Assembly: GCA_965205345.1 (NCBI GenBank)
Contig: CBDBGQ010000036.1
Location: 65,463-129,462, forward strand
From: Acidobacteriota bacterium
GTDB taxonomy: Bacteria > Acidobacteriota > UBA6911 > RPQK01 > CBDAPI01
Direction: 5' to 3'
DNA: 64,000 nucleotides
Shown: positions 3,494 through 62,511 of the stretch, one piece after another
Layout: each line of letters opens with the position of its first letter
Position numbering within the stretch: position 1 is the stretch's first letter
Translations under genes and position numbers: made by a program
The notes under the pieces: model-generated
What the model saw: the letters and a program-made list of their open reading frames with translations, nothing else
The model's database searches: none
Told to the model about the DNA's origin: nothing

Positions 3494-3526
3494 GGAACGT
3501 GGAACGTGGAATGTGGAACGTGGAAC
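3494..3526. repeat. (GGAACGT)n heptamer array, about 4.5 units, overlapping the PBP1A stop codon
   Basis: ggaacgtggaacgtggaatgtggaacgtggaac read directly. Confidence 0.8.
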
Positions 3527-5917: not shown

Positions 5918-6048
5918 GTTCCACGTTCCACGTTCCACGTTCCACGTCCCGGGGATCCTAAACGATTCCAGGTTCGAAGAAAGCGTGGAACGTGAAACGT
6001 GAAACGTGAAACGTGAAACGCGGAACGTGGAAGGTGGAACGTGGAACG
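5918..6048. repeat. Inverted pair of heptamer arrays, (ACGTTCC)4 then a 35-bp spacer then (GNAACGT)9, between greA and mrcA; a potential long hairpin
   Basis: gttccacgttccacgttccacgttccacg ... gtggaacgtgaaacgtgaaacgtgaaacgtgaaacgcggaacgtggaaggtggaacgtggaacg. Confidence 0.85.
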
Positions 6049-14992: not shown

Positions 14993-15027
14993 CGGGTTCC
15001 AGGTTCCAGGTTCCACGTTCCACGCTC
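14993..15027. repeat. (GGTTCCA)/(ACGTTCC)-type heptamer array
   Basis: gggttccaggttccaggttccacgttccacg lies between convergent genes. Confidence 0.75.
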
Positions 15028-17574: not shown

Positions 17575-17579
17575 TGGCT

Positions 17580-17608
17580 CGTGGAACGTGGAACGTGAAA
17601 CGTGGAAC
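17580..17608. repeat. (GGAACGT)n heptamer array, about 4 units, abutting the fabH stop
   Basis: gtggaacgtggaacgtgaaacgtggaac read directly. Confidence 0.8.
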
Positions 17609-19874: not shown

Positions 19875-19980
19875 GTTCCACGTTCCATGTTCCAGGTGGG
19901 TTCTAGGTTCTGGGTTCTGGGTTCTGGAAATTTGGGATCCAAGCGTGGAACGTGGAACTTGGAACGTGGAACCTGGAACG
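19875..19980. repeat. Composite inverted heptamer structure: (ACGTTCC)-type arm, (GGGTTCT)4 spacer, (GGAACNT)-type arm
   Basis: gttccacgttccatgttccagg tgggttctaggttctgggttctgggttctgg ... gtggaacgtggaacttggaacgtggaacctggaacg. Confidence 0.85.
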
Positions 19981-25344: not shown

Positions 25345-25402
25345 CCCGCTCTCATTTGCAGCATTTACCTGTGCGGACAGTCGCCTTGCCTGGAGTGTTA
25401 CT

Positions 25403-25428
25403 CGTTCCACGTTCCACGTTCCACGTTC
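25403..25428. repeat. (ACGTTCC)n heptamer array, about 3.5 units
   Basis: cgttccacgttccacgttccacgtt lies upstream of ispE. Confidence 0.8.
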
Positions 25429-25449
25429 GACGGAAGTCAAGTCAGCACC

Positions 25450-32165: not shown

Positions 32166-32189
32166 ACGTTCCACGTTCCACGTTCCACG
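32166..32189. repeat. (ACGTTCC)n heptamer array, about 3.5 units
   Basis: cgttccacgttccacgttccacg lies between rplI and dnaB. Confidence 0.8.
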
Positions 32190-32288
32190 CATCTTGATTC
32201 CGAGTTGGCGGACTGGTTACCATGGAACCATCAGTCTTGCGGCTTCCTCGTTTACCTACTCAGACTGGTCTTATAAAGTGCGGTCGGA

Positions 32289-40892: not shown

Positions 40893-42224
40893 GGCTAAGC
40901 AACTGTTTTTCTGTAATTTGACTGAGAGTGATCTGAGATCGGATTCTCCTGTGGTTTGAAATCGACCAGGCTGAGGTACTGTTTCCCGATCAGCCAGTCT
41001 TCGTGAATCTCCTCGACGACAGCGGTGATGAGTCGTAGTGCGGACTCGGTGTTTGGAAAGATACCGACGACCCGGGTACGCCGGCGAATCTGACGGTTTA
41101 GGTTCTCCAGCCCGTTGTTGGTGCGAATGCGCCGCCAGGCAGAACGTGCAAAACGAAAGACCGTAAAGCCTTCCGGCAGATTGGTCTCCATCCAATCGGC
41201 CAGCTCCGGGTTGCGGTCGTAGTATTGCTCGACTCTGGCCCGAAGCATCGCCTCAGCTTCGCCTCCAGACGGGGCATTGAAGATGTCTCGAATGTCAGTG
41301 GCGATGGCGGCACGTTGGTCGGATCGGCGGGCGTATCGCTGAGCATTCTGGCTCAGGTGAAACTGACAGCGTTGCCAGGGCACTGAAGGAAAGACAGCTC
41401 TTCTGGCAGCTCGTAGTCCTGAGTGGTCATCGCTGACAATCAGCTGCACACCCTCCAGACCACGCTTTTGAAGCTGCTGCAGAAACTCTCGCCAGTGGAC
41501 CTCCGCCTCGCTGAGTCGGCAGCTGACCCCAATCACCTCCCGCTTGCCCCAGCAGTTGACTCCGGTCGCTTTCAAGACGGCCACATCCTGAATGCTGCCC
41601 TGGCGACGGACCTTCTCGTAGTGGGCATCCAGGTACACAACTGGATAGCTGCCCAAAGGGCGGTTGCGAAACTGCTCGAGTTCGTCGTCCAGCAGCTTGG
41701 AGATTCTTGAGACCTGGCTGGCGGAGATCTCGGTGCCGCACAGCTGCTCGGTAATCTCAGTGACCTTGCGCGTCGACACGCCCATCACGTACATCTCGGC
41801 GATGGCCAGCTTCAGGGCTTTCTCCGAGCGGCACCCTCGCTCCAGGGATCGGGGATAGAAGTCCAGGTGACGTACTTGTGGAATCCGGATTTGAAGCTGT
41901 CCCACTCGAGTTGACAGCGTCTTGGCCTTGTACCCGTTGGCGTGGTCTCGACGCTGCTCGCTCCGCTCCCAGCGTCGAGCTCCCAGAAACTCTTCTCGTT
42001 CCATCTGCATGGCGGTGTTGAGCAGTTTCTCCAACACTCCTCGAAACGCGTCGCTGCCTTCTTCGATCAGTTCTTTCAACAATTCTCGTGGTAGCCTCTG
42101 TTCTGGGTCTGGGGTCATTCGGATCCTCCTTGCTCTTGTCTTGAGTTTTTGGAGAAATCCTGCCCCAGACCTCTGATCCTTTTAGCTCACCTTCCTCAAA
42201 TTACAGAAAGAACGGTACACCCCT
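40893..42224 (-). mobile_element. IS256-family insertion sequence (about 1.33 kb) with imperfect terminal IRs and 8-bp TSD CGCTTTCC
   Basis: TSD at 40885-40892 and 42225-42232. The IRs share ...TTCTGTAATTTGA. Confidence 0.8.
40895..42118 (-). CDS. IS256-family (Mutator-like) transposase, 407 aa
   Basis: Typical IS256 transposase length and motifs (DxxH...E catalytic region 'VVYLDAHYEKVR', 'CQFHLSQN'). Confidence 0.85.
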   Translation of the reverse strand: MTPDPEQRLPRELLKELIEEGSDAFRGVLEKLLNTAMQMEREEFLGARRWERSEQRRDHANGYKAKTLSTRVGQLQIRIPQVRHLDFYPRSLERGCRSEKALKLAIAEMYVMGVSTRKVTEITEQLCGTEISASQVSRISKLLDDELEQFRNRPLGSYPVVYLDAHYEKVRRQGSIQDVAVLKATGVNCWGKREVIGVSCRLSEAEVHWREFLQQLQKRGLEGVQLIVSDDHSGLRAARRAVFPSVPWQRCQFHLSQNAQRYARRSDQRAAIATDIRDIFNAPSGGEAEAMLRARVEQYYDRNPELADWMETNLPEGFTVFRFARSAWRRIRTNNGLENLNRQIRRRTRVVGIFPNTESALRLITAVVEEIHEDWLIGKQYLSLVDFKPQENPISDHSQSNYRKTVA

Positions 42225-43128
42225 CGCTTTCCTCAGCTTGTTCGGTCCGCCGCTATGCGGTAAACATGGTGGGGGACGCGCTGGCATCGGGAAACTCGGT
42301 GTATGAGACGGATGAGGATATCGAGCTGGTCGGCGAGGCATTTCCCTTCGCTCTCAAGCTGACCGAGACCCTGTTGGCCGAATCACCCAATCATCCCGGC
42401 TTGCTGATCACCGCTTGCAAGGGGTTTGTGGGCTACTCCTACGCCTACGTCGACTTCCGGGCGGAGCTGGCAGAGGAAACCGACCTGGACCGAGCCCGAG
42501 TGCTTCGAACTAGAGCGAGAAAACTTTATCTGCGCGCCCACAATTACTGTACGCGGGGCCTCGAGCGATGGTACCCGGGGTTGACAGCTGCCCTGACAAC
42601 GGATCCTCAAGCGGCGGTCCGTCTGACCAAGGAAAAGAAGCGCGACAGGGATCTCCCTTTTCTCTATTGGACAGCCGCCGCACTGGGCAGTGCCATTTCA
42701 GCGTCCCGAGACGACGCAGCCATGCTGGCGCGACTACCCGAGGTTGAAGCACTGCTCGATCGTGCCCTGATGCTGGATGAGGACTGGAACAAAGGCTCAC
42801 TCTACGAGGTCAAGGTGCAGCTTGCAGGAGCGAAAGTCTGGGGGGGCGATGAGCAGGAGATCGCCCGGAATTACGAGAGGGCCCTGATGCTCTCGAGCGG
42901 GCAGCATGCCGCCCTGTTCGTGACCTATGCGGAAGCTGTCGCAATCCCGAACCAGGATCGGGAACTGTTTCTAACACTGATGAATCGAGCCCTCTCCGTC
43001 AACCCTGACCTCGATCCTGAGAACCGGCTCCTCAACCTCCTCGCCCAGCGCAGGGCTCAGTTCCTGCTGGATCGAATTGAGGACCTCATCCTAAGTGATG
43101 ACCCGACCCAGGGCCAGGGAGGCCAACC

Positions 43129-44139
43129 ATGAAAATTCCAACCGTTGGCAGTTGGTTGATTCTACTTGGGGGTCTGCTGCTGTTCGGGTCCGTTCTCCAG
43201 GCTCAGACCATCCGGATCCGGATTGGAACCGTGGCGCCCCAGGACTCCCCGTGGCACGAAACTCTCAAGCAGCTTCGTCAGGAATGGCACAGAATCTCCC
43301 AAGGAGCGGTCCGGGTCCAGATCTATCCCGGGGGCGTGCTGGGCGACGGACCGGAAATGGTCAGACAAGTGCGTGCCGGTCGAATCCAGGCGGTGGCCCT
43401 CTCCTCTGCCGGGTTGGCCCAGATCGACAAGGGGATCTCCTGTCTTCAGATTCCCCTGATGTTTGATTCCTATGAGGAACTCGACTACGTAAGAGCACGC
43501 ATCTCGGATCAACTCGAGAAGCGGCTCGAGCAGCGGGGATTCAAGCTCCTGCACTGGGGAGACGCCGGCTGGGTCCACTCCTTTACAACTGCACCCGCGC
43601 GGACACCCAATGATCTTCGCAAGCTCAAACTCTTTACCCACGCCGGAGATCCGGACATGGAGAGCCTCTACAAGGAGTTTGGCTTCCGAGTTGTCCCGCT
43701 TTCGCTCACCGATTTGATCACCTCTCTTCAGACGGGAATGATCGAAGCCGTGAGCCTGCCCCCGCTCATCACTTTACTCAACGAGTCGTACCGTCTGGCC
43801 CCCAATATGGCGAGCTTCAGATGGACTCCGATGGTGGCAGGAACCGTGATCAGCCTGAAAACCTGGGAGCAGATTCCAGAAGAGCTCCGCCCCAGAATGC
43901 TGGAGGCGGCCACTAAAGTCGGTGACCTTCTGCGAGATGAAATCCGCCAGATGGATGGCGATGCAGTGGCTGAAATGGAAAAACGCGGACTGCAGGTGAT
44001 CGACCTGAATCAAGACGAACTCGACCGCTGGCAGAAGGAGGCTGAGGATGCTTATCCTCGCCTCCGGGGACGCTATGCTCCGGCCGACCTCTTTGACGAA
44101 GTTCGCCGTCTGCGCGATCAATTCCGAGCTCAAAGGTAA
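43129..44139 (+). CDS. TRAP transporter solute-binding protein (DctP-family; TatP-like)
   Basis: Signal peptide and DctP-family fold. Its start overlaps the tatT-like stop (ATGA), as in TPAT operons. Confidence 0.75.
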   Translation: MKIPTVGSWLILLGGLLLFGSVLQAQTIRIRIGTVAPQDSPWHETLKQLRQEWHRISQGAVRVQIYPGGVLGDGPEMVRQVRAGRIQAVALSSAGLAQIDKGISCLQIPLMFDSYEELDYVRARISDQLEKRLEQRGFKLLHWGDAGWVHSFTTAPARTPNDLRKLKLFTHAGDPDMESLYKEFGFRVVPLSLTDLITSLQTGMIEAVSLPPLITLLNESYRLAPNMASFRWTPMVAGTVISLKTWEQIPEELRPRMLEAATKVGDLLRDEIRQMDGDAVAEMEKRGLQVIDLNQDELDRWQKEAEDAYPRLRGRYAPADLFDEVRRLRDQFRAQR

Positions 44140-44674
44140 GAGCTCAAAGGTAAGAGGTTGTGAGACTGTCACGGGCAGCCAACCGACCAGTTCTGGTCTG
44201 GTTCGAAGACTCCCTTTCGCTCCTCATTCTCAGCCTGATGGCGCTTCTGCCAGTCATTGAGATCCTGGGCCGGACCCTGCTGGGAAGGGGAATTCCCGGC
44301 TCCATCGTGCTGGTCCAGCACATGACGCTCTGGATCACGATCCTGGGGGCCGCCCTGGCAGCACGGAGTCACCGCCTGCTCGCTCTTTCCAGTTTGAATT
44401 TTTTCCCGGAGAAGCTGCGCCCTCCAGTGCGCGTGGGCACCTCCATGCTGGCAACAGGCATTACCGCCATCCTCTTCGTTGCCAGCCTGGATTTTGTTCG
44501 AATCGAACGCGAGGCCGGTACCGAGCTGGCCTGGGGCATTCCCGCCTGGCTGGCTCTGACCATTCTGCCGACAGGGTTCAGTGTGATCACGCTGCGGCTG
44601 ATCTGGCATGCCGCGGAGACTCACCGGGGAAGGTTGTTGGCAGCAGCTGGACTGGCCATTCCGGTTATTTTTGG

Positions 44675-45892
44675 GGGATTATATACGAAAGTGGCGAAAT
44701 AGGTGGACGGCTGCTTAAAGGTACGCTAAGCTAGAAGCCGTACAGCGAAACGCCCCGGTTCCAGCCGGGGCGGTGGATAACCCTTAACCGGCTGGTCCAA
44801 TGGGTGCCTAAGCCTCAGACCAGCTACTGGAGTACAGCTATGCCCAAGACTATCCTCAATGTCACCCTCCCGTCAACCCTCGCGCTCAATACGGTGCTCG
44901 CTCAGGACATCAAGGTCCTGGCGAAGGTCGATCAAGCCATGGCCAAGCCAAATGCCATCGTCGACCAGTCGTTCAGAAAGGTGAACTCCTGGACGTAGCG
45001 GTCCAGGTGCTTGGGGCTGAGCTTGTGGAAGGTGCCCTTGTGCGCTCGCTTGAGCATCGACCACAGCGATTCAATCCCGTTGGTGTGAACCTCGCCCTTG
45101 ACGTACTCGGAGAGCGAGTGCTTGACCGTGGCGTGATTGAACCGTAGCGACTCGTAGGCGGTCGCATCGTCGGTGTAGACCGTCGCACCAGGGGCCGCGT
45201 GTTCCTCGACGAATCCCTGCAACGTTTGCTGGTCCGTCGCATGAACGACCTTCGCGGCCACGCGCTTGGTTCGGCGGTCCTTCGCTCCGACCGCCGCCGT
45301 CTTGCCGACGGGTCCACGGCCCGTGTTGGCCAGGGCCTTCCGTCGGGTGTTGCTCATGTTCCGGCGACGACCGCCGAAGTATGTTTCGTCGATTTCAACG
45401 GGACCGGCGAACCGCACCCCATCCTGCGACAAGGCCGCCCGGAGCCGCTGCGCGAGGAACCACGCGGATTTCTGCGTGATACCCAAGTCGCGGTGGAGCT
45501 TCATGCTCGACACGCTCTTGAGGCTAGTCATGATCTGGAAGATGGCGATGATCCAGTCCTGATAGCCGATCTTCGAGCCTTCCATGATCGTGCCGGTCTT
45601 GACGCTGAACTTCTTGCCGCATGCCTTCTCACGGCAGCGGAACGGCATCGTCTTGTGCTTGCACCCCGTCTGCACGTTGACGGAGCCGCAGTCGTGGCAG
45701 CATACGCCGTCAGGCCACCGCTGCTGGATGAACCACCGCTCCGCCGTCGCGTTGTCGGGGAACATCCGCATGATCTGTTTGAGGGAAATGCCTTTGCGGA
45801 ACGCTTTGCCTGGGGCCTTCTTTCTCATGCCCCTAGTTTACAGGAAAGTGGCTGCGTGTCAAGAGTAAACGCCACTTTCGTATATAATCCCC
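44675..45892 (-). mobile_element. IS1595-family insertion sequence (about 1.2 kb), 22-bp perfect terminal IRs GGGGATTATATACGAAAGTGGCG, TSD TATTTTTG
   Basis: IRs at 44675-44697 and 45870-45892. Direct repeat at 44666-44673 and 45893-45900. Confidence 0.85.
44932..45828 (-). CDS. IS1595-family (ISXO2-like) transposase with N-terminal zinc-ribbon
   Basis: 'CCHDCGS...C..C..KFSV' Zn-ribbon, then DDE domain 'VEIDETYFGG'. Confidence 0.8.
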   Translation of the reverse strand: MRKKAPGKAFRKGISLKQIMRMFPDNATAERWFIQQRWPDGVCCHDCGSVNVQTGCKHKTMPFRCREKACGKKFSVKTGTIMEGSKIGYQDWIIAIFQIMTSLKSVSSMKLHRDLGITQKSAWFLAQRLRAALSQDGVRFAGPVEIDETYFGGRRRNMSNTRRKALANTGRGPVGKTAAVGAKDRRTKRVAAKVVHATDQQTLQGFVEEHAAPGATVYTDDATAYESLRFNHATVKHSLSEYVKGEVHTNGIESLWSMLKRAHKGTFHKLSPKHLDRYVQEFTFLNDWSTMAFGLAMA

Positions 45893-47431: not shown

Positions 47432-47935
47432 ATGACCCGCGTCGTGAGTTTTCAGGAATTTTCCGTTTTTGGAGATGCGGCCCGACTCTGGGTCTATCCT
47501 TTCCGGGATCCCTTGACCGGGCCGCCCCGCAGCCTGCTGGGGCAGACGCTGAATGGTTTTCTACCCACCTGGGCTTCCCATGGGGCACGGGTTGAGGGCC
47601 GCTTTCTTATTCACGAGGACCGGTTCGTCCTGCTGGTCGGCGACTCCCCGGCCGGGATCTCGGGTTGTTCCATTGACAGCAGCGTTGAGAATTTCAAGAT
47701 GCTTCGGGATCGGCATGGCCTGGACGGTCTGGATCGCTCGCTGGTCTTCTTTCGGGACACAGCAGGCCGCATCCAGGCAGAGCATTTCTTCGACTTCCAG
47801 AAGCTGGTATCTTCCGAGCGCATAGTACCGGACACGCCCGTCTTTGACACTACGATCACCACTCTGGGGGAACTTCGAGAGGGTGGCCTGGAGAAGCCCT
47901 TCCAGGATTCGTGGCACGCCGCACGGTTTTCTTGA
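47432..47935 (+). CDS. Hypothetical protein, 167 aa
   Basis: ORF with plausible composition and no recognisable motifs. It ends exactly at a heptamer array. Confidence 0.35.
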   Translation: MTRVVSFQEFSVFGDAARLWVYPFRDPLTGPPRSLLGQTLNGFLPTWASHGARVEGRFLIHEDRFVLLVGDSPAGISGCSIDSSVENFKMLRDRHGLDGLDRSLVFFRDTAGRIQAEHFFDFQKLVSSERIVPDTPVFDTTITTLGELREGGLEKPFQDSWHAARFS

Positions 47936-48172
47936 TTCCACGTTCCACGTTTCACGTTCCACGTCGTGCGCTCATTGTCATTCGCGCCTTTTGCCTGCCC
48001 GGCGGCTGGACAGATCATCTCCGGAACACCGGCCCGCAAGGCCGTGAGGAACTGTCACCATCAAGGAAACGACAGAGGCAGGAACGAAAGTGACTGCGCA
48101 GCAGCGCGGAAGCTGCCGGGAAAACGCCTCACGCTGCGCAACCGTGGAACGCGAAACGTGAAACGTGGAATG
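47936..48172. repeat. Inverted pair of heptamer arrays, (ACGTTYC)4 at 47936-47964 and (GNAACGT)4 at 48143-48172, flanking a 180-bp spacer
   Basis: Read directly. Confidence 0.8.
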
Positions 48173-48638: not shown

Positions 48639-49061
48639 ATGAGGTGCCACTGGTCGTCTGCAAGCAGCTCTTTGCTGCTGATCCTACTCTTTTTCGAGCC
48701 GCTGTCAGCGCAGAGAGGCGAGTTTTCGCTGGAGCAGGTCATGAGTGCCGGCTTTCCCTCGGAAATGACTGCTGCCCCGGTCGGTGGAGCTGTGGCCTGG
48801 GTCATCAATGAACGGGGCAGATCGCCCGTTCTTCTGATCCACGGAGACGATGATCGCAACGTCCCTTTCAGCGAGACGGTCGATCTGGTAGCAGCCTTGA
48901 GAAAGCAGGGGGTTGAATTCGAGCAGCTGGTTTTTCCCGATGAAGTCCATGGATTTCTGACCCACCACTCCTGGATACGAGCCTTTCAGGCTGCGGCCGA
49001 GTTTCTGGAGCGCAGGCTCATGTCCACCCGGCACAAAGTTGGAGACAACCCGGAACAATAA
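48639..49061 (+). pseudogene. Remnant of an S9 (prolyl-oligopeptidase/dienelactone hydrolase) family peptidase: signal peptide fused to the extreme C-terminus, with roughly 500 residues missing
   Basis: The signal peptide plus the first propeller strand run directly into 'LLIHGDDDRNVPFSETVDLVAALRKQGVEFEQLVFPDEVHGF', which is the catalytic Asp/His region at the S9 C-terminus. Confidence 0.5.
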
Positions 49062-59130: not shown

Positions 59131-59210
59131 TCAGGGAGATGGCGCAGAGAAGGGGCAAATTCTTCAAAGATGCCTGATTTGGGTTTGACCCAGTCGGCGT
59201 GTCCGGCTCC

Positions 59211-60200
59211 TCAGGGGATGCTCTCCAGATGGAGAACCACGGCCTCCCGGACCGCCCGGAGAGAATCGATTCCCGACGGATAAGTCAAGCGACACACTTC
59301 CAGCCGCGTCGCAATCCGATGCAGCAGATGAAATCGCTCTCTCTGCATACCGGCTCCTGCAGTCAGCCGGGGAACCAGGGAGTGGCGAACCAGCTCGATG
59401 ACAGCCGCGGCTCCCCGGACCGGCTCAATGACGACATCCCGTTGATCTGGCCGGTGCTCCGGAAGATAGCAGCAAAGCAGTCTCCTGGGAGATGTCCCGA
59501 AGCTGCCCGACCAGGTCTCCCTGACCGGGACTCCGATCTTGCGGGAGAAGCCATTTACAAATGGAAAATGATCCACATCGGGCAGGAACAGCTTCGCCTG
59601 CTCGGGTGTCATTTTGATGCGAGGATGGCAGGGCCAGGCAAGAACTTCTTCCTCAGAAACCTCGATCGGAAGGGAATCATCTGAGATCAGTCGGTACCCG
59701 TCCTTGAGGAAGGCCGCCGCCAGGGTGCTCTTCCCTCTACCGCTGAAAGCCAGGAAGGCGCCGGCCCGGTCAGCAGCTGCAATACAGGATGCGTGTAAGA
59801 CCGGACGGCCGATGGTCTCGAGCCAGAAACTCATCGCCGCCTGGAAGAGAAATGTCTCCACTGAGCTGATGTTCTCGGTACTGGGAAAGCATTGGAGACA
59901 CTTGTCCGTAATCGCAAAATCAGCAATTTCCGCCATTCTGAGGAGATACCCATCGTGAAGCTTGTACAGTCGGGCCAGGGGAACGCCCTTTTCGTTCTCG
60001 AGCTCACTCGTATACACGGGTTCGACTCCCTCCTGCAAGCCGCTCGGCGTTCCCGGATGAAAGCTGAGAGTCAGGTCCGGTTCACTTTCAGAGAGAGGAA
60101 GGTCGATCCCGAAAGGAAAGTTGCTTCGGACAGTGGATCCGAAAAGATAGTAGGCGGGCCAGGGGGCGCTTTCGAGGGACAAGTCTGAAAGTTCTGTCAA
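59211..60200 (-). CDS. HPr-kinase-like P-loop Ser kinase of the type found in lasso-peptide clusters
   Basis: Walker A 'FLAFSGRGKSTLAAAF' sits in the context of an HprK C-terminal fold. It lies adjacent to the AsnB-like and PqqD genes. Confidence 0.65.
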   Translation of the reverse strand: MTELSDLSLESAPWPAYYLFGSTVRSNFPFGIDLPLSESEPDLTLSFHPGTPSGLQEGVEPVYTSELENEKGVPLARLYKLHDGYLLRMAEIADFAITDKCLQCFPSTENISSVETFLFQAAMSFWLETIGRPVLHASCIAAADRAGAFLAFSGRGKSTLAAAFLKDGYRLISDDSLPIEVSEEEVLAWPCHPRIKMTPEQAKLFLPDVDHFPFVNGFSRKIGVPVRETWSGSFGTSPRRLLCCYLPEHRPDQRDVVIEPVRGAAAVIELVRHSLVPRLTAGAGMQRERFHLLHRIATRLEVCRLTYPSGIDSLRAVREAVVLHLESIP

Positions 60201-60316
60201 GAAGATGGGTCCTGCAACATCCGGGAGTACAGATAACAGATTGAATGAACCGTGGCAAGCTCGCCGAGTATGCTGAGGAGCCGGGAGCGTTAGCGACCGA
60301 GAATGCTTCGCACCGT

Positions 60317-62005
60317 TTAGAAATAGCGCCGCAGCCAGTCTTCCACGCTGACGGCATTCCAGATGCCCAGCCCGTGGCCCTCTCCCTTCAGGTATAGGCG
60401 GTACTGGTCCTGCAGAGAAGCTTGATCCACAAGCCCCAATTCCGCGGCACGCATATCCCGCAGCAGCGGCCAGACCTTTTCCGTTTCCCTTTCCCGGAAT
60501 CCACGATGAAACAGGGACTCTACGGTGATCTTCCTCTTTCTTTGAAGGACAGGAGCCGGCAGAATCCCTTCAAACGCCCGCCTCAAAACCAGCTTGTCTT
60601 TTCCTGCACAGGAATTGTGAGTTGCAGACAAACTGGCCGCAAACTCCACAATCCGTCGATCGAGGAGTGGGTGGATCATCACCATTTCAAAACGACCGGC
60701 TATCCTGGAAATCCGCAGGAGCAGTGTATTCCGGGCCAGGTTCTGAAGCCAGCGTATACGGAGTCGGCGGCCCAGGTCCCCGCGCCTGGCCCGCAGCGGC
60801 GGCGGCAGGAGCCCGCGAACTCTCTCTCTGGTGTTTTTCGTGAGCCCGGCGGGAAGCCGAGTCCGTTTCCGCTCCCAGGCCGGAAATCGATTCCGGAGTA
60901 AAGGATCCAAGGTGGATCGGAAAATATAGCGCAGATTGAAACCCGGATCTTTGCGCTCCCGGCCCAGTTGAGCAGCCAGCGAAATCCAGCGCCCGCTCAA
61001 GAATAAGTCGGGATAGGCGCTGATACTACCGAACAATTCATCTCCTCCCACGCCCGAGAACAGGTAACTGTGACCCCGAGATGCTGCTTCTTGAAAAATT
61101 GCTTCCCAGCTTTCCCTGTAATAATGGGCTTCCGGACCCTCCCTGGGAGTTCTCAGGCCCTGTGGGTCGCTCAGAGTCCACTGCTGGTCCGCCCTAATCG
61201 GGGTCAGGTCAAGATCAAGTACCCTGCACACCTCCCGAATCTCCTCAGATTCGTCGGCCTCGGGCAAACCCGGATGGAGCCATGAGAACGCCCGGATTCG
61301 TTGCCTGAAATCGAGTTCTCGGACGACAGCGGCTACACTGGTTGAGTCCATTCCCCCACTCAAGGCAATCCCTGCGGAAGCCGGCAAGACCCGGAGCCAA
61401 TCACTGTGAACGGCAGAGAGACGTTCGCGAAGGGCCTCCCGGTAGGCGTCATCATCGGGCAGCCGCAACGCGGTCACCTCGTCCAGACTCCAGTACCTCT
61501 TCAGTCGAAACCCATCCTCGTCAACCGTCACAATCATCCCGGCCGGGACTCTCCGAATCCCTTCGTAGAAGGTCCGACCCTCAGGCAGCAGGAAGCCTGC
61601 GACCTGGGCCGACAGACTCATCATGTCCACACGGGAATCGGGGACGTGCGGGACCAGATCCTCCACCTTCCAGGAAACGAGCAGGTTGTTGCGGTAGAAG
61701 TAGTAGTAGATGGGGTGGAGACCGAGTCGATCCGTCGAGAGAATCAGTCGCCTGGCCTCACCATCCCACAGGGCGAAGGAAAGGGTTCCTTCCACAAGTC
61801 TGCTGAACTCTCGGGGACCACGCTCGAGGTATGAGGCAGAAAGTTCCGGCGCCGAGACGGCCGCGGGTGCAGAGATGCCCTTATTCAATACGTGGCCGCG
61901 GGCAAAAAGGAACTGGATTGGGTGCGAAGTGTCGTCGCGAGCGCCTTCCGATGAGTCTCGAACCTGCCACGTGATCTGGCCGGAAGTACCGGATCGGCAG
62001 TTCAT
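60317..62005 (-). CDS. Asparagine-synthetase-B-like macrolactam synthetase (lasso cyclase, C-protein-like)
   Basis: PP-loop 'IALSGGMDSTSVAA' is present. The N-terminal amidotransferase domain lacks the catalytic Cys2, as in lasso cyclases; 562 aa. Confidence 0.7.
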   Translation of the reverse strand: MNCRSGTSGQITWQVRDSSEGARDDTSHPIQFLFARGHVLNKGISAPAAVSAPELSASYLERGPREFSRLVEGTLSFALWDGEARRLILSTDRLGLHPIYYYFYRNNLLVSWKVEDLVPHVPDSRVDMMSLSAQVAGFLLPEGRTFYEGIRRVPAGMIVTVDEDGFRLKRYWSLDEVTALRLPDDDAYREALRERLSAVHSDWLRVLPASAGIALSGGMDSTSVAAVVRELDFRQRIRAFSWLHPGLPEADESEEIREVCRVLDLDLTPIRADQQWTLSDPQGLRTPREGPEAHYYRESWEAIFQEAASRGHSYLFSGVGGDELFGSISAYPDLFLSGRWISLAAQLGRERKDPGFNLRYIFRSTLDPLLRNRFPAWERKRTRLPAGLTKNTRERVRGLLPPPLRARRGDLGRRLRIRWLQNLARNTLLLRISRIAGRFEMVMIHPLLDRRIVEFAASLSATHNSCAGKDKLVLRRAFEGILPAPVLQRKRKITVESLFHRGFRERETEKVWPLLRDMRAAELGLVDQASLQDQYRLYLKGEGHGLGIWNAVSVEDWLRRYF

Positions 62006-62029
62006 TGGATCACTGTCGAGCAGGCCATT

Positions 62030-62314
62030 TCACGGCCTGACGGCCAGAAGTTCCAGGTCAACCATTTCTTTGACAAACTCGATGATGGCTTCTTCCAGAT
62101 CGCTGTCCTCGATCTCGAATTCCTTCATCAGGACCGTGTGAGCTTCACGGAGGGAACTGGTCTGATGAAAGGCTTCCCACACCCGACTTCCCACGTCATC
62201 CAGCCCGTAATACTGGCCGGTTTCCTCGTGAAAGATGGCCACCTCTTCGTCCACATGGCCAAACGTGACCTTGGGCGGGAGTTCCACGGTGGATTCGAGT
62301 GTGACTTCTTCCAT
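62030..62314 (-). CDS. PqqD-family RiPP leader-recognition element (lasso B1-like)
   Basis: 94 aa. 'VEEVAIFHEETGQYYGLDDVGSRVWE' fits the PqqD/RRE winged-helix pattern. RBS GGAG is 8 nt upstream. Confidence 0.7.
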   Translation of the reverse strand: MEEVTLESTVELPPKVTFGHVDEEVAIFHEETGQYYGLDDVGSRVWEAFHQTSSLREAHTVLMKEFEIEDSDLEEAIIEFVKEMVDLELLAVRP

Positions 62315-62391
62315 GACGACTGCTCCAAACCTAACAGACCAGGACAGCAGATGCTAGTGCTCTGCACTAACGGTCGGGCTGGGGCCCAACC

Positions 62392-62489
62392 GCGTTCCAC
62401 GTTCCACGTTGTCTCGGTGTAGGAAAACTCTCGGACGAGGCACGACGTGGAACTTGGAACGTGGAAACGTGGAACGTGAATCTGGAATG
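62392..62489. repeat. Inverted pair of heptamer arrays in the maf/PqqD intergenic region
   Basis: gcgttccacgttccacgtt ... cgtggaacttggaacgtggaaacgtggaacgtgaatctggaatg. Confidence 0.8.
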
Positions 62490-62511
62490 CACCGCCTGAG
62501 TCAGCTGAGTT

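Follow-up and report, generated by a model that had tools for sequence, protein, structure and literature searches.

A lasso peptide-derived B1-C-K gene trio without an adjacent B2 protease or precursor gene in an Acidobacteriota genome

What do the recognition, cyclase and kinase genes of a lasso peptide pathway do when neither a leader peptidase nor a precursor is encoded beside them? This question is raised by a stretch of DNA from an Acidobacteriota bacterium (the window, by which we mean the full 64-kb stretch), in which three genes, B1, C and K, lie in that order on the minus strand at 59211-62314. A precursor, a C cyclase and a B protease (or B1 plus B2) are regarded as the requirements for lasso biosynthesis. 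As judged from sequence, the trio encodes the leader-recognition protein (B1), the isopeptide-forming macrolactam synthetase (C) and the serine kinase (K) of a kinase-type lasso pathway of the paeninodin, pseudomycoidin and Bsf kind. Since two defining features, B2 and the precursor, were absent, we regard it as a lasso-derived partial module and not as a lasso biosynthetic gene cluster. The three genes are as follows.

62030..62314, minus strand: B1, PqqD-family recognition element for ribosomally made, post-translationally modified peptides (RiPPs), i.e., a leader-binding chaperone, 94 amino acids (aa); profile and PDB matches
60317..62005, minus strand: C, asparagine-synthetase-like macrolactam synthetase homologue without the amidotransferase nucleophile, 562 aa; profiles and motifs
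59211..60200, minus strand: K, HprK/PEPCK-fold P-loop kinase, homologue of lasso precursor kinases, 329 aa; profiles, predicted structure and conservation

The open reading frames (ORFs), separated by 24 nucleotides (nt) between B1 and C and by 116 nt between C and K, lie where the original prediction, made from the letters of the window, had placed three co-directional, tightly spaced genes. They are flanked upstream by Maf and EcsC and downstream by a convergent acyl-CoA dehydrogenase gene (Pfam).

B1 had been taken for a PqqD-family leader-recognition element, and this assignment held: the protein scored 48.9 bits against Pfam PqqD (PF05402; cut-off, 23.4), and its best PDB match was the lasso recognition element TbiB1 (5v1u; E = 1.8e-11), with the tyrosine in QYYGLD aligned to TYFGLD of TbiB1. 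A further PDB match was a "lasso peptide biosynthesis PqqD family chaperone" (7.8e-8), true PqqD reached only an E value of 0.37, and BsfB1 as the query detected B1 at E = 5e-5 in a small database. The lasso PqqD chaperone model NF033536 matched it at E = 1.4e-12, with a score that fails to reach that model's strict cut-off, as do the scores of B1 proteins from canonical contexts. Across the clade of relatives described below, B1 is 85-90% identical.

C matched Pfam Asn_synthase (E = 5.9e-36), with the GATase domain matched as a fragment only, and its SGGMDS PP-loop, GGDELFG and KxxLR motifs were all intact. Given that its N terminus reads MNCRSG, that an in-frame stop lies 8 codons upstream and that orthologues have W at the position of the window's Cys, C lacks both a Cys2 nucleophile and an alternative start that would restore one, in line with the predicted AsnB homologue with an intact PP-loop and a degenerate nucleophile. 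Its best NCBIfam model was the lasso cyclase NF033535 (isopeptide; 168 bits), on which cyclases from canonical contexts scored 178-216 bits; asparagine synthetase B (TIGR01536) gave 119.6 bits and thus stayed below its cut-off of 267.1. The PDB profile matches were to amidotransferases and AsnB only. At the sequence level, C belongs with the PP-loop macrolactam synthetases that lack the N-terminal nucleophile (Ntn) cysteine.

Sequence matches of K were weak: HprK-related kinase A (TIGR04352) at E = 7e-9, TIGR04355 at 1.3e-7, Hpr_kinase_C at 0.005 and, with BsfK as the query, 7.8e-4 in a small database. An AlphaFold (AF2) model built from 74 homologues was confident (predicted local distance difference test, 94.3), and Foldseek matched it to ATP-PEPCK over the whole chain (E = 9e-8) and to HprK/P over the C-terminal domain (E = 1.4e-6; template modelling score of ≤0.72, normalised to the target). 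The weak profiles and the confident model together support the HprK-like P-loop kinase of the original prediction. Residues H136, G156-K157-S158 (GxGKS(T)) and D174-D175 were invariant in the 74 homologues; the DD pair is the metal site, and mutation there inactivates PsmK (PMC6993621). Against the HprK of carbon catabolite control (TIGR00679), K scored 15.8 bits and did not reach the cut-off of 240; on the model, the two kinases appear to share only the fold and the P-loop.

Neither cut-off was reached for the HPr-rel-A pair (TIGR04352 kinase, 35.2 versus 200 bits; TIGR04353 PqqD chaperone, 24 versus 35 bits), so that these families appear related to the window proteins while membership is not given. 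For calibration, the NCBIfam models for lasso, HprK and PqqD proteins were applied to C, K and B1 of the two canonical clusters introduced next and to the experimentally characterised BsfK; all of these likewise fell below threshold, with scores on a level with those of the window proteins.

The C family is very small, with six protein clusters at 56-99% identity and the next match at 29%. Its genome matches lie in Acidobacteriota metagenome-assembled genomes (MAGs); an exact-sequence look-up of the window's C protein gave no record, and JGI metagenomes yielded no clade member, only generic AsnB paralogues of 23-31% identity, with lasso partner genes in 3 of 80. We examined clade loci L001 to L014, L017 and L098, together with L015 and L016, which lie outside the clade and carry canonical clusters. 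The common gene order in the clade is EcsC-(PQQ β-propeller)-Maf-B1-C-K, followed on the opposite strand by N, acyl-CoA dehydrogenase, Lar_N and SSF, and the locus is conserved in ~10 Acidobacteriota lineages, with C identity down to 40%. On the deep branch L098, where identity to the window is 40% for C, 51% for K and 47% for B1, the B1-C-K/N layout is likewise compact and intact, and all locus genes are intact in the L009 type. In this clade of soil Acidobacteriota, the trio occupies a single chromosomal position, with Maf/EcsC on one side and a block of fatty-acid oxidation genes on the other, and has been passed on by vertical inheritance.

Outside the clade, the closest relatives are L015 (a Deltaproteobacteria MAG; C, 39%) and L016 (an Acidobacteriota MAG; C, 35%). 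Both are canonical kinase-type lasso clusters, and K is 32-36% identical to their kinases. In L015, a precursor with the core GGTGGNPEVPPLVGNTSEAV (Gly1, Glu8) lies directly upstream of C, followed by K, with B1, B2 (PF13471; E = 2e-22) and N on the other strand. In L016, the precursor directly upstream of C has the core GGTIGPDDGQFGGTLPGS (Gly1, Asp7/8, C-terminal Ser), B1 and K are also present, and B2 was identified by phmmer (6.5e-15). Both precursors carry a YxxPxLx3Gx5Tx leader. Because the closest non-clade relatives of C and K sit in canonical lasso clusters, we conclude that the window trio is lasso-derived. The original prediction of the signature trio of kinase-type lasso clusters is therefore supported in both gene identity and ancestry.

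Genes absent from the locus and precursors in one subclade

The original prediction had noted no B2 within 3 kb on either side of the trio. This absence extends to six frames of the whole window, in which a hidden Markov model (HMM) of 123 B2 sequences found nothing at E < 10 while recovering positive controls at 1e-45 to 1e-62. B2 HMMs of 1, 3 and 123 sequences also had no match in six frames of the window and of every clade locus, with the L015 and L016 controls found. BsfB2 detected no B2 in the window, and PF13471 was found neither in 20 otherwise unassigned window ORFs (Pfam) nor in the precomputed Pfam annotation of the relatives' clade loci. Within ~10 kb of the locus, B2 was absent in every clade locus; the B2-less state is old and common to the whole clade. 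Fusions of N to B2 exist (PMC8498205). We rejected such a fusion in the clade, as the B2 HMMs miss the relatives' N ORFs and as an equally sized N occurs in L015 alongside a separate B2 gene.

The reported lack of an adjacent precursor of ≥60 aa likewise extends further. When all stop-to-stop ORFs of ≥22 aa were searched with the regular expression YxxPxLx3Gx5Tx and with a precursor HMM of 5 sequences, no precursor was found in the window, and translation of the Maf-B1, B1-C, C-K and K-acyl-CoA dehydrogenase spacers in all frames revealed no precursor-like small ORF. Neither member of the canonical B2 and precursor pair that would mark an already-described cluster type was found in the window. 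A precursor fused to the N terminus of C was considered and rejected, since the C protein of the L005 type has the same N terminus plus separate A genes.

A further gene of the relatives' locus, N, is missing at the following site.

59131..59210, no strand: site of the missing N (PF14907 nucleotidyltransferase; 393-420 aa and on the opposite strand in relatives); 80 bp between the K and acyl-CoA dehydrogenase stops

A tblastn search of the whole window with two N proteins gave no match, and N is present or fragmentary in all relatives. Because only 80 bp remain between the K stop and the acyl-CoA dehydrogenase stop, N has been deleted in the window lineage. No ABC exporter gene (D) was present beside the locus in the window or in the relatives' annotations. 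The original prediction did not recognise that the locus is cut down from a fuller cluster, with N deleted in the window lineage, or that relatives show repeated pseudogenisation. Searches of the literature turned up nothing useful on PF14907 or on lasso clusters that naturally lack B2.

Precursor genes were limited to the subclade of L005, L014, L017 and L100, whose C is 56% identical to that of the window. There, two precursor genes lie in tandem between B1 and C (L005:9600-9886 and L017:2600-2886, with equivalents in L014 and L100), and in the L017-type locus, B1-A1-A2-C-K-N, all genes are intact. A1 has a leader ending in FTRPAIRRYGGVDRLTR and the core SSPGESGQNTQGHIIYDSL; A2 has the leader MKKPRKQNRKTFTQPRIHEYGDLRPLTQ and the core VTSIYDFG. 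The leader stretches FTRPAIRRYGGVDRLTR and FTQPRIHEYGDLRPLTQ show the exact lasso leader spacing. Neither core has Asp or Glu at positions 7-9, and the two share an IYD-x-x C terminus. The IYDSL end of the L005 A1 core resembles that of the paeninodin core, whose last residues are ...HYDS. Among near-clonal L005-type strains, all four A1/A2 substitutions are non-synonymous, and two of them fall on the recognition residues Pro(-14) and Thr(-2).

The L005/L017 subclade thus has adjacent precursors, yet no B2. In the window subclade, neither A1 nor A2 is discernible between the abutting genes B1 and C, which are 24 nt apart in the window. A window-type locus without precursor genes (L006) and an L005-type locus with them (L100) co-occur in ENA sample ERZ25071132.

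Retention or decay of the module

Between the window and four lineages of the window subclade, the ratio of nonsynonymous to synonymous substitution rates (dN/dS; Nei-Gojobori) was 0.09-0.16 for B1, 0.17-0.24 for C and 0.16-0.29 for K, with flanking genes at 0.07-0.25. The B1 ratio against L005 was 0.02, in a comparison in which dS was saturated. Approximately 3.6% of the possible substitutions in C create a stop codon, and the probability that its reading frame would stay open under neutrality over the observed divergence was 1e-4 to 2.5e-11. Strain L006 is 99% identical to the window, with few differences, and is a 1x long-read contig. C showed a dS of 0.82-1.25, ~2-fold the 0.3-0.6 measured for B1, K and the flanks when the same pairs of genomes were compared; a difference in codon constraint or an earlier recombination may be responsible.

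The precursor loss is old, since the same junction lacks precursor genes throughout the window subclade. All members of this subclade are without precursor genes and B2 at the locus, and the trio has therefore been maintained by selection in that state. Given this purifying selection on all three genes since the reduction, the module most likely still works. Our preferred explanation, to which we assign a probability of roughly 50%, is that it functions in trans, on a precursor encoded elsewhere in the genome.

In such a pathway, B1 would bind a leader of the YxxPxLx3Gx5Tx type and present the peptide to K, which would phosphorylate a core Ser before leader removal. The leader would then be cut off by a protease encoded outside the locus, either a remote B2 or a housekeeping protease, and C would adenylate an Asp or Glu side chain and close an isopeptide ring on the new N terminus. 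That B1, the most conserved gene, has been kept without B2 would be explained by its enhancing kinase action as well as serving B2, and a dedicated B2 may be replaceable, because pseudomycoidin has been made in Escherichia coli and Bacillus subtilis without B1 and B2. The original prediction had offered an either/or of remote B2 and precursor genes or a different handling of the leader. The 64 kb do not decide between the two, although the choice is sharpened by the old, clade-wide lack of B2, by the purifying selection and by the canonical-leader precursors that lie without B2 in one subclade.

Several observations weigh against a module that works in trans. Neither its substrate gene nor B2 is visible in the 64 kb, or within ~10 kb on each side in any relative, and the window lineage itself has lost N. 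A search for B2 homologues in a database of 5.8 billion proteins, itself a weak negative, found none assigned to a clade genome among the best 120 of 1,320 matches. The lack of Asp or Glu at positions 7-9 in the only adjacent precursors of the clade makes a classical lasso product there look doubtful. Moreover, the locus is clearly dispensable in present populations, with at least 6 independent inactivations in relatives: K is broken by an insertion sequence (IS) element (L007/L011) or frameshifted (L008), L013 has a frameshifted C and a truncated K, N is frameshifted (L012 and L005/L014) or split by an IS (L001-3/L010), and in other strains C is split into 134 and 354 aa.

Alternatively, the window copy may be a nonfunctional remnant of a once complete kinase-type lasso cluster, deprived of its precursor, B2, N and exporter, in which disabling mutations have not yet accumulated, an explanation that we consider possible but less likely than continued function. 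It would account for the missing A and B2 and the deleted N, for the frequency with which IS elements and frameshifts have independently hit K, C and N in sister lineages, and for the exclusively non-synonymous substitutions in the L005-type precursors, two of them at Pro(-14) and Thr(-2). However, the precursor loss is old, yet most lineages still have full-length copies of B1, C and K, at dN/dS values of 0.1-0.3, like the flanks. Neutral survival of the C frame has a probability of ≤1e-4, and the catalytic motifs are invariant. A variant of this explanation is that function may have been lost recently and in the window strain only.

Less likely still is that the clade has turned the machinery into a B2-independent RiPP pathway, in which B1 would guide K and C to peptides with a lasso leader and a non-lasso core, the leader would be removed by a general protease, if at all, and the substrate would be encoded elsewhere in the window lineage. 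Its products would be phosphorylated and/or unthreaded macrolactams, for example with a ring closed onto the conserved Asp three residues from the C terminus. The absence of B2 at every clade locus, down to 40% C identity, fits this proposal, as do the exact leader spacing and shared IYD-x-x end of the L005/L017 precursors, whose cores lack Asp or Glu at 7-9, and the in vivo action of pseudomycoidin C without B1 and B2 (PMC6993621). Its basis, however, is two paralogous and possibly degenerating peptides from one near-clonal subclade. In addition, B1 keeps the tyrosine that helps form the Thr(-2) pocket with B2 in other systems (PMC10368454), and the leaders keep Thr(-2); the retention of both suggests that B2-type cleavage still occurs.

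Finally, a role in primary metabolism, with C as a genuine asparagine synthetase or amidotransferase, B1 in pyrroloquinoline quinone (PQQ) synthesis and K as a carbon-regulation HprK, is suggested by the Pfam Asn_synthase and GATase_7 matches and by the PDB profile matches of C, and is effectively refuted by the lack of Cys2 or an upstream start in C, by the ranking of TIGR01536 below both its cut-off and the lasso cyclase model, by the far greater closeness of B1 to lasso recognition elements than to PqqD, by the TIGR00679 score of K and by the lasso precursors and B2 that adjoin the nearest relatives.

Spacers and other features of the window

Two spacers of the locus carry features of their own.

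60201..60316, minus strand: C-K spacer with a block kept across the clade (TTGCCA...TTCAATCTGTTATCTGTAC...GATGTTGCAGGA), compared in the window, L009, L010, L011 and L012
62315..62511, no strand: Maf-B1 spacer, with a hairpin of GTGGAAC heptamer repeats; a genome-wide element resembling repetitive extragenic palindromic (REP) sequences

Within the window subclade, the C-K block is conserved while the remaining spacer sequence varies, and it may act internally as a regulatory or promoter region, giving K a site of its own; a scan of this spacer for the sigma-70 consensus gave no match. Compared with window positions 62315-62511, the 99%-identical strain L006 has ~155 bp extra in the Maf-B1 spacer (L006:9492-9646), possibly because a small repeat element was inserted or deleted. 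Two overlapping ORFs of 89 and 90 aa were rejected as candidate genes because they are out-of-frame shadows.

Tandem GTGGAAC heptamers (pattern ACGTGGAACGTGGAAC, ≤2 mismatches) occurred 45 times in the window, versus 0.01 expected, in 11 clusters outside or at the edges of long ORFs. Copies lie on both strands at 5918-6047, 19875-19979, 47935-48171 and 62394-62482, and hairpin-forming inverted arms were seen only at 62390-62464. By their sequence and distribution, the repeats look like a REP-like dispersed element of this genome, with one copy between Maf and B1. Many IS copies also surround the locus in relatives, and the region appears to be rich in IS elements. The ORF at 48639-49061 is probably a truncated gene remnant.

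7-36, 2419-2441, 3497-3526, 5918-6047, 14996-15025, 17579-17608, 19875-19979, 25397-25433, 32168-32190, 47935-48171 and 62394-62482: GTGGAAC clusters
820-2178, 40895-42118 and 44932-45828, minus strand: transposase-like ORFs, translations judged by eye only
48639-49061, plus strand: 140-aa ORF matching the last third of the Peptidase_S9 (prolyl oligopeptidase) profile, positions 143-210 of 213 (Pfam)
42149-44702, plus strand: tripartite ATP-independent periplasmic (TRAP)-type transporter genes, TAtT T-component (E = 1e-73) and DctQ (E = 1e-16); ordinary and unrelated to the trio

Comparison with known kinase-type lasso systems

The original prediction had described such clusters as essentially uncharacterised outside Firmicutes and Proteobacteria. 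It missed that Acidobacteriaceae were already predicted to carry kinase-type clusters and that a Bradymonadales example has been studied biochemically (PMC10368454); the phylum is therefore not the new point. The new point is the conserved, selected, B2-less architecture: a natural, vertically inherited lineage keeps B1, C and K by selection without an adjacent B2 and, in the window, also without an adjacent precursor. To our knowledge, the only prior hint that B2 is dispensable came from heterologous expression of pseudomycoidin. If the trio is active, it would be either a trans-acting RiPP maturation module, of a kind missed by mining tools that require co-localised A and B2, or a form of the lasso machinery that has naturally become independent of B2. 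As a relic, the trio would record the piece-by-piece erosion of a cluster. If the proposed repurposing were true, the clade would have naturally dispensed with B2, using a B1-guided kinase and an AsnB-like cyclase (with N in most lineages) to make a RiPP of a new kind, a phosphorylated or unthreaded macrolactam rather than a lasso peptide.

The psm cluster of Bacillus pseudomycoides encodes psmC, A, K, B1, B2, N and D (PMC6993621). It resembles the window and its relatives in its split-B recognition element, AsnB-like cyclase and HprK-like kinase with the DD metal site, and it has a PF14907-type N, as the window's relatives do. In contrast, psm encodes A, B2, N and an ABC exporter, of which the window has none, and it belongs to the Firmicutes rather than the Acidobacteriota. 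In E. coli and B. subtilis, pseudomycoidin was formed even when B1 and B2 were left out, the leader presumably being cleaved off by host factors (PMC6993621); there, the dispensability of B2 is an experimental finding and no case of natural gene loss.

The paeninodin (pade) cluster of Paenibacillus dendritiformis comprises the kinase, A, C, B1, B2 and D, with no N (PMC6993621, PMC8498205). It is like the window in lacking N and unlike it in having A, B2 and D and in belonging to the Firmicutes. Its kinase phosphorylates the precursor before leader removal, and PsmK and PadeK both act on the precursor (PMC6993621, PMC8498205).

The bsf cluster of Bradymonas sediminis (bsfA, B1, B2, C, D, K and N) is, like the window locus, of kinase type and from outside the Firmicutes, and its YxxPxL leader spacing is the same as in the L005, L015 and L016 precursors (PMC10368454). 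BsfB1 enhances phosphorylation by BsfK, which is a B2-independent role of B1 (PMC10368454). Bsf differs from the window in having B2, A, D and N, and its proteins are only weakly similar to those of the window (E = 1e-3 to 1e-5, small database).

Closest of all are the L015 and L016 clusters, which are nearest to the window by C (39% and 35%), K (32% and 36%) and B1 and which differ from it in that both have a precursor directly upstream of C (Gly1; Glu8 or Asp7/8) and a PF13471 B2.

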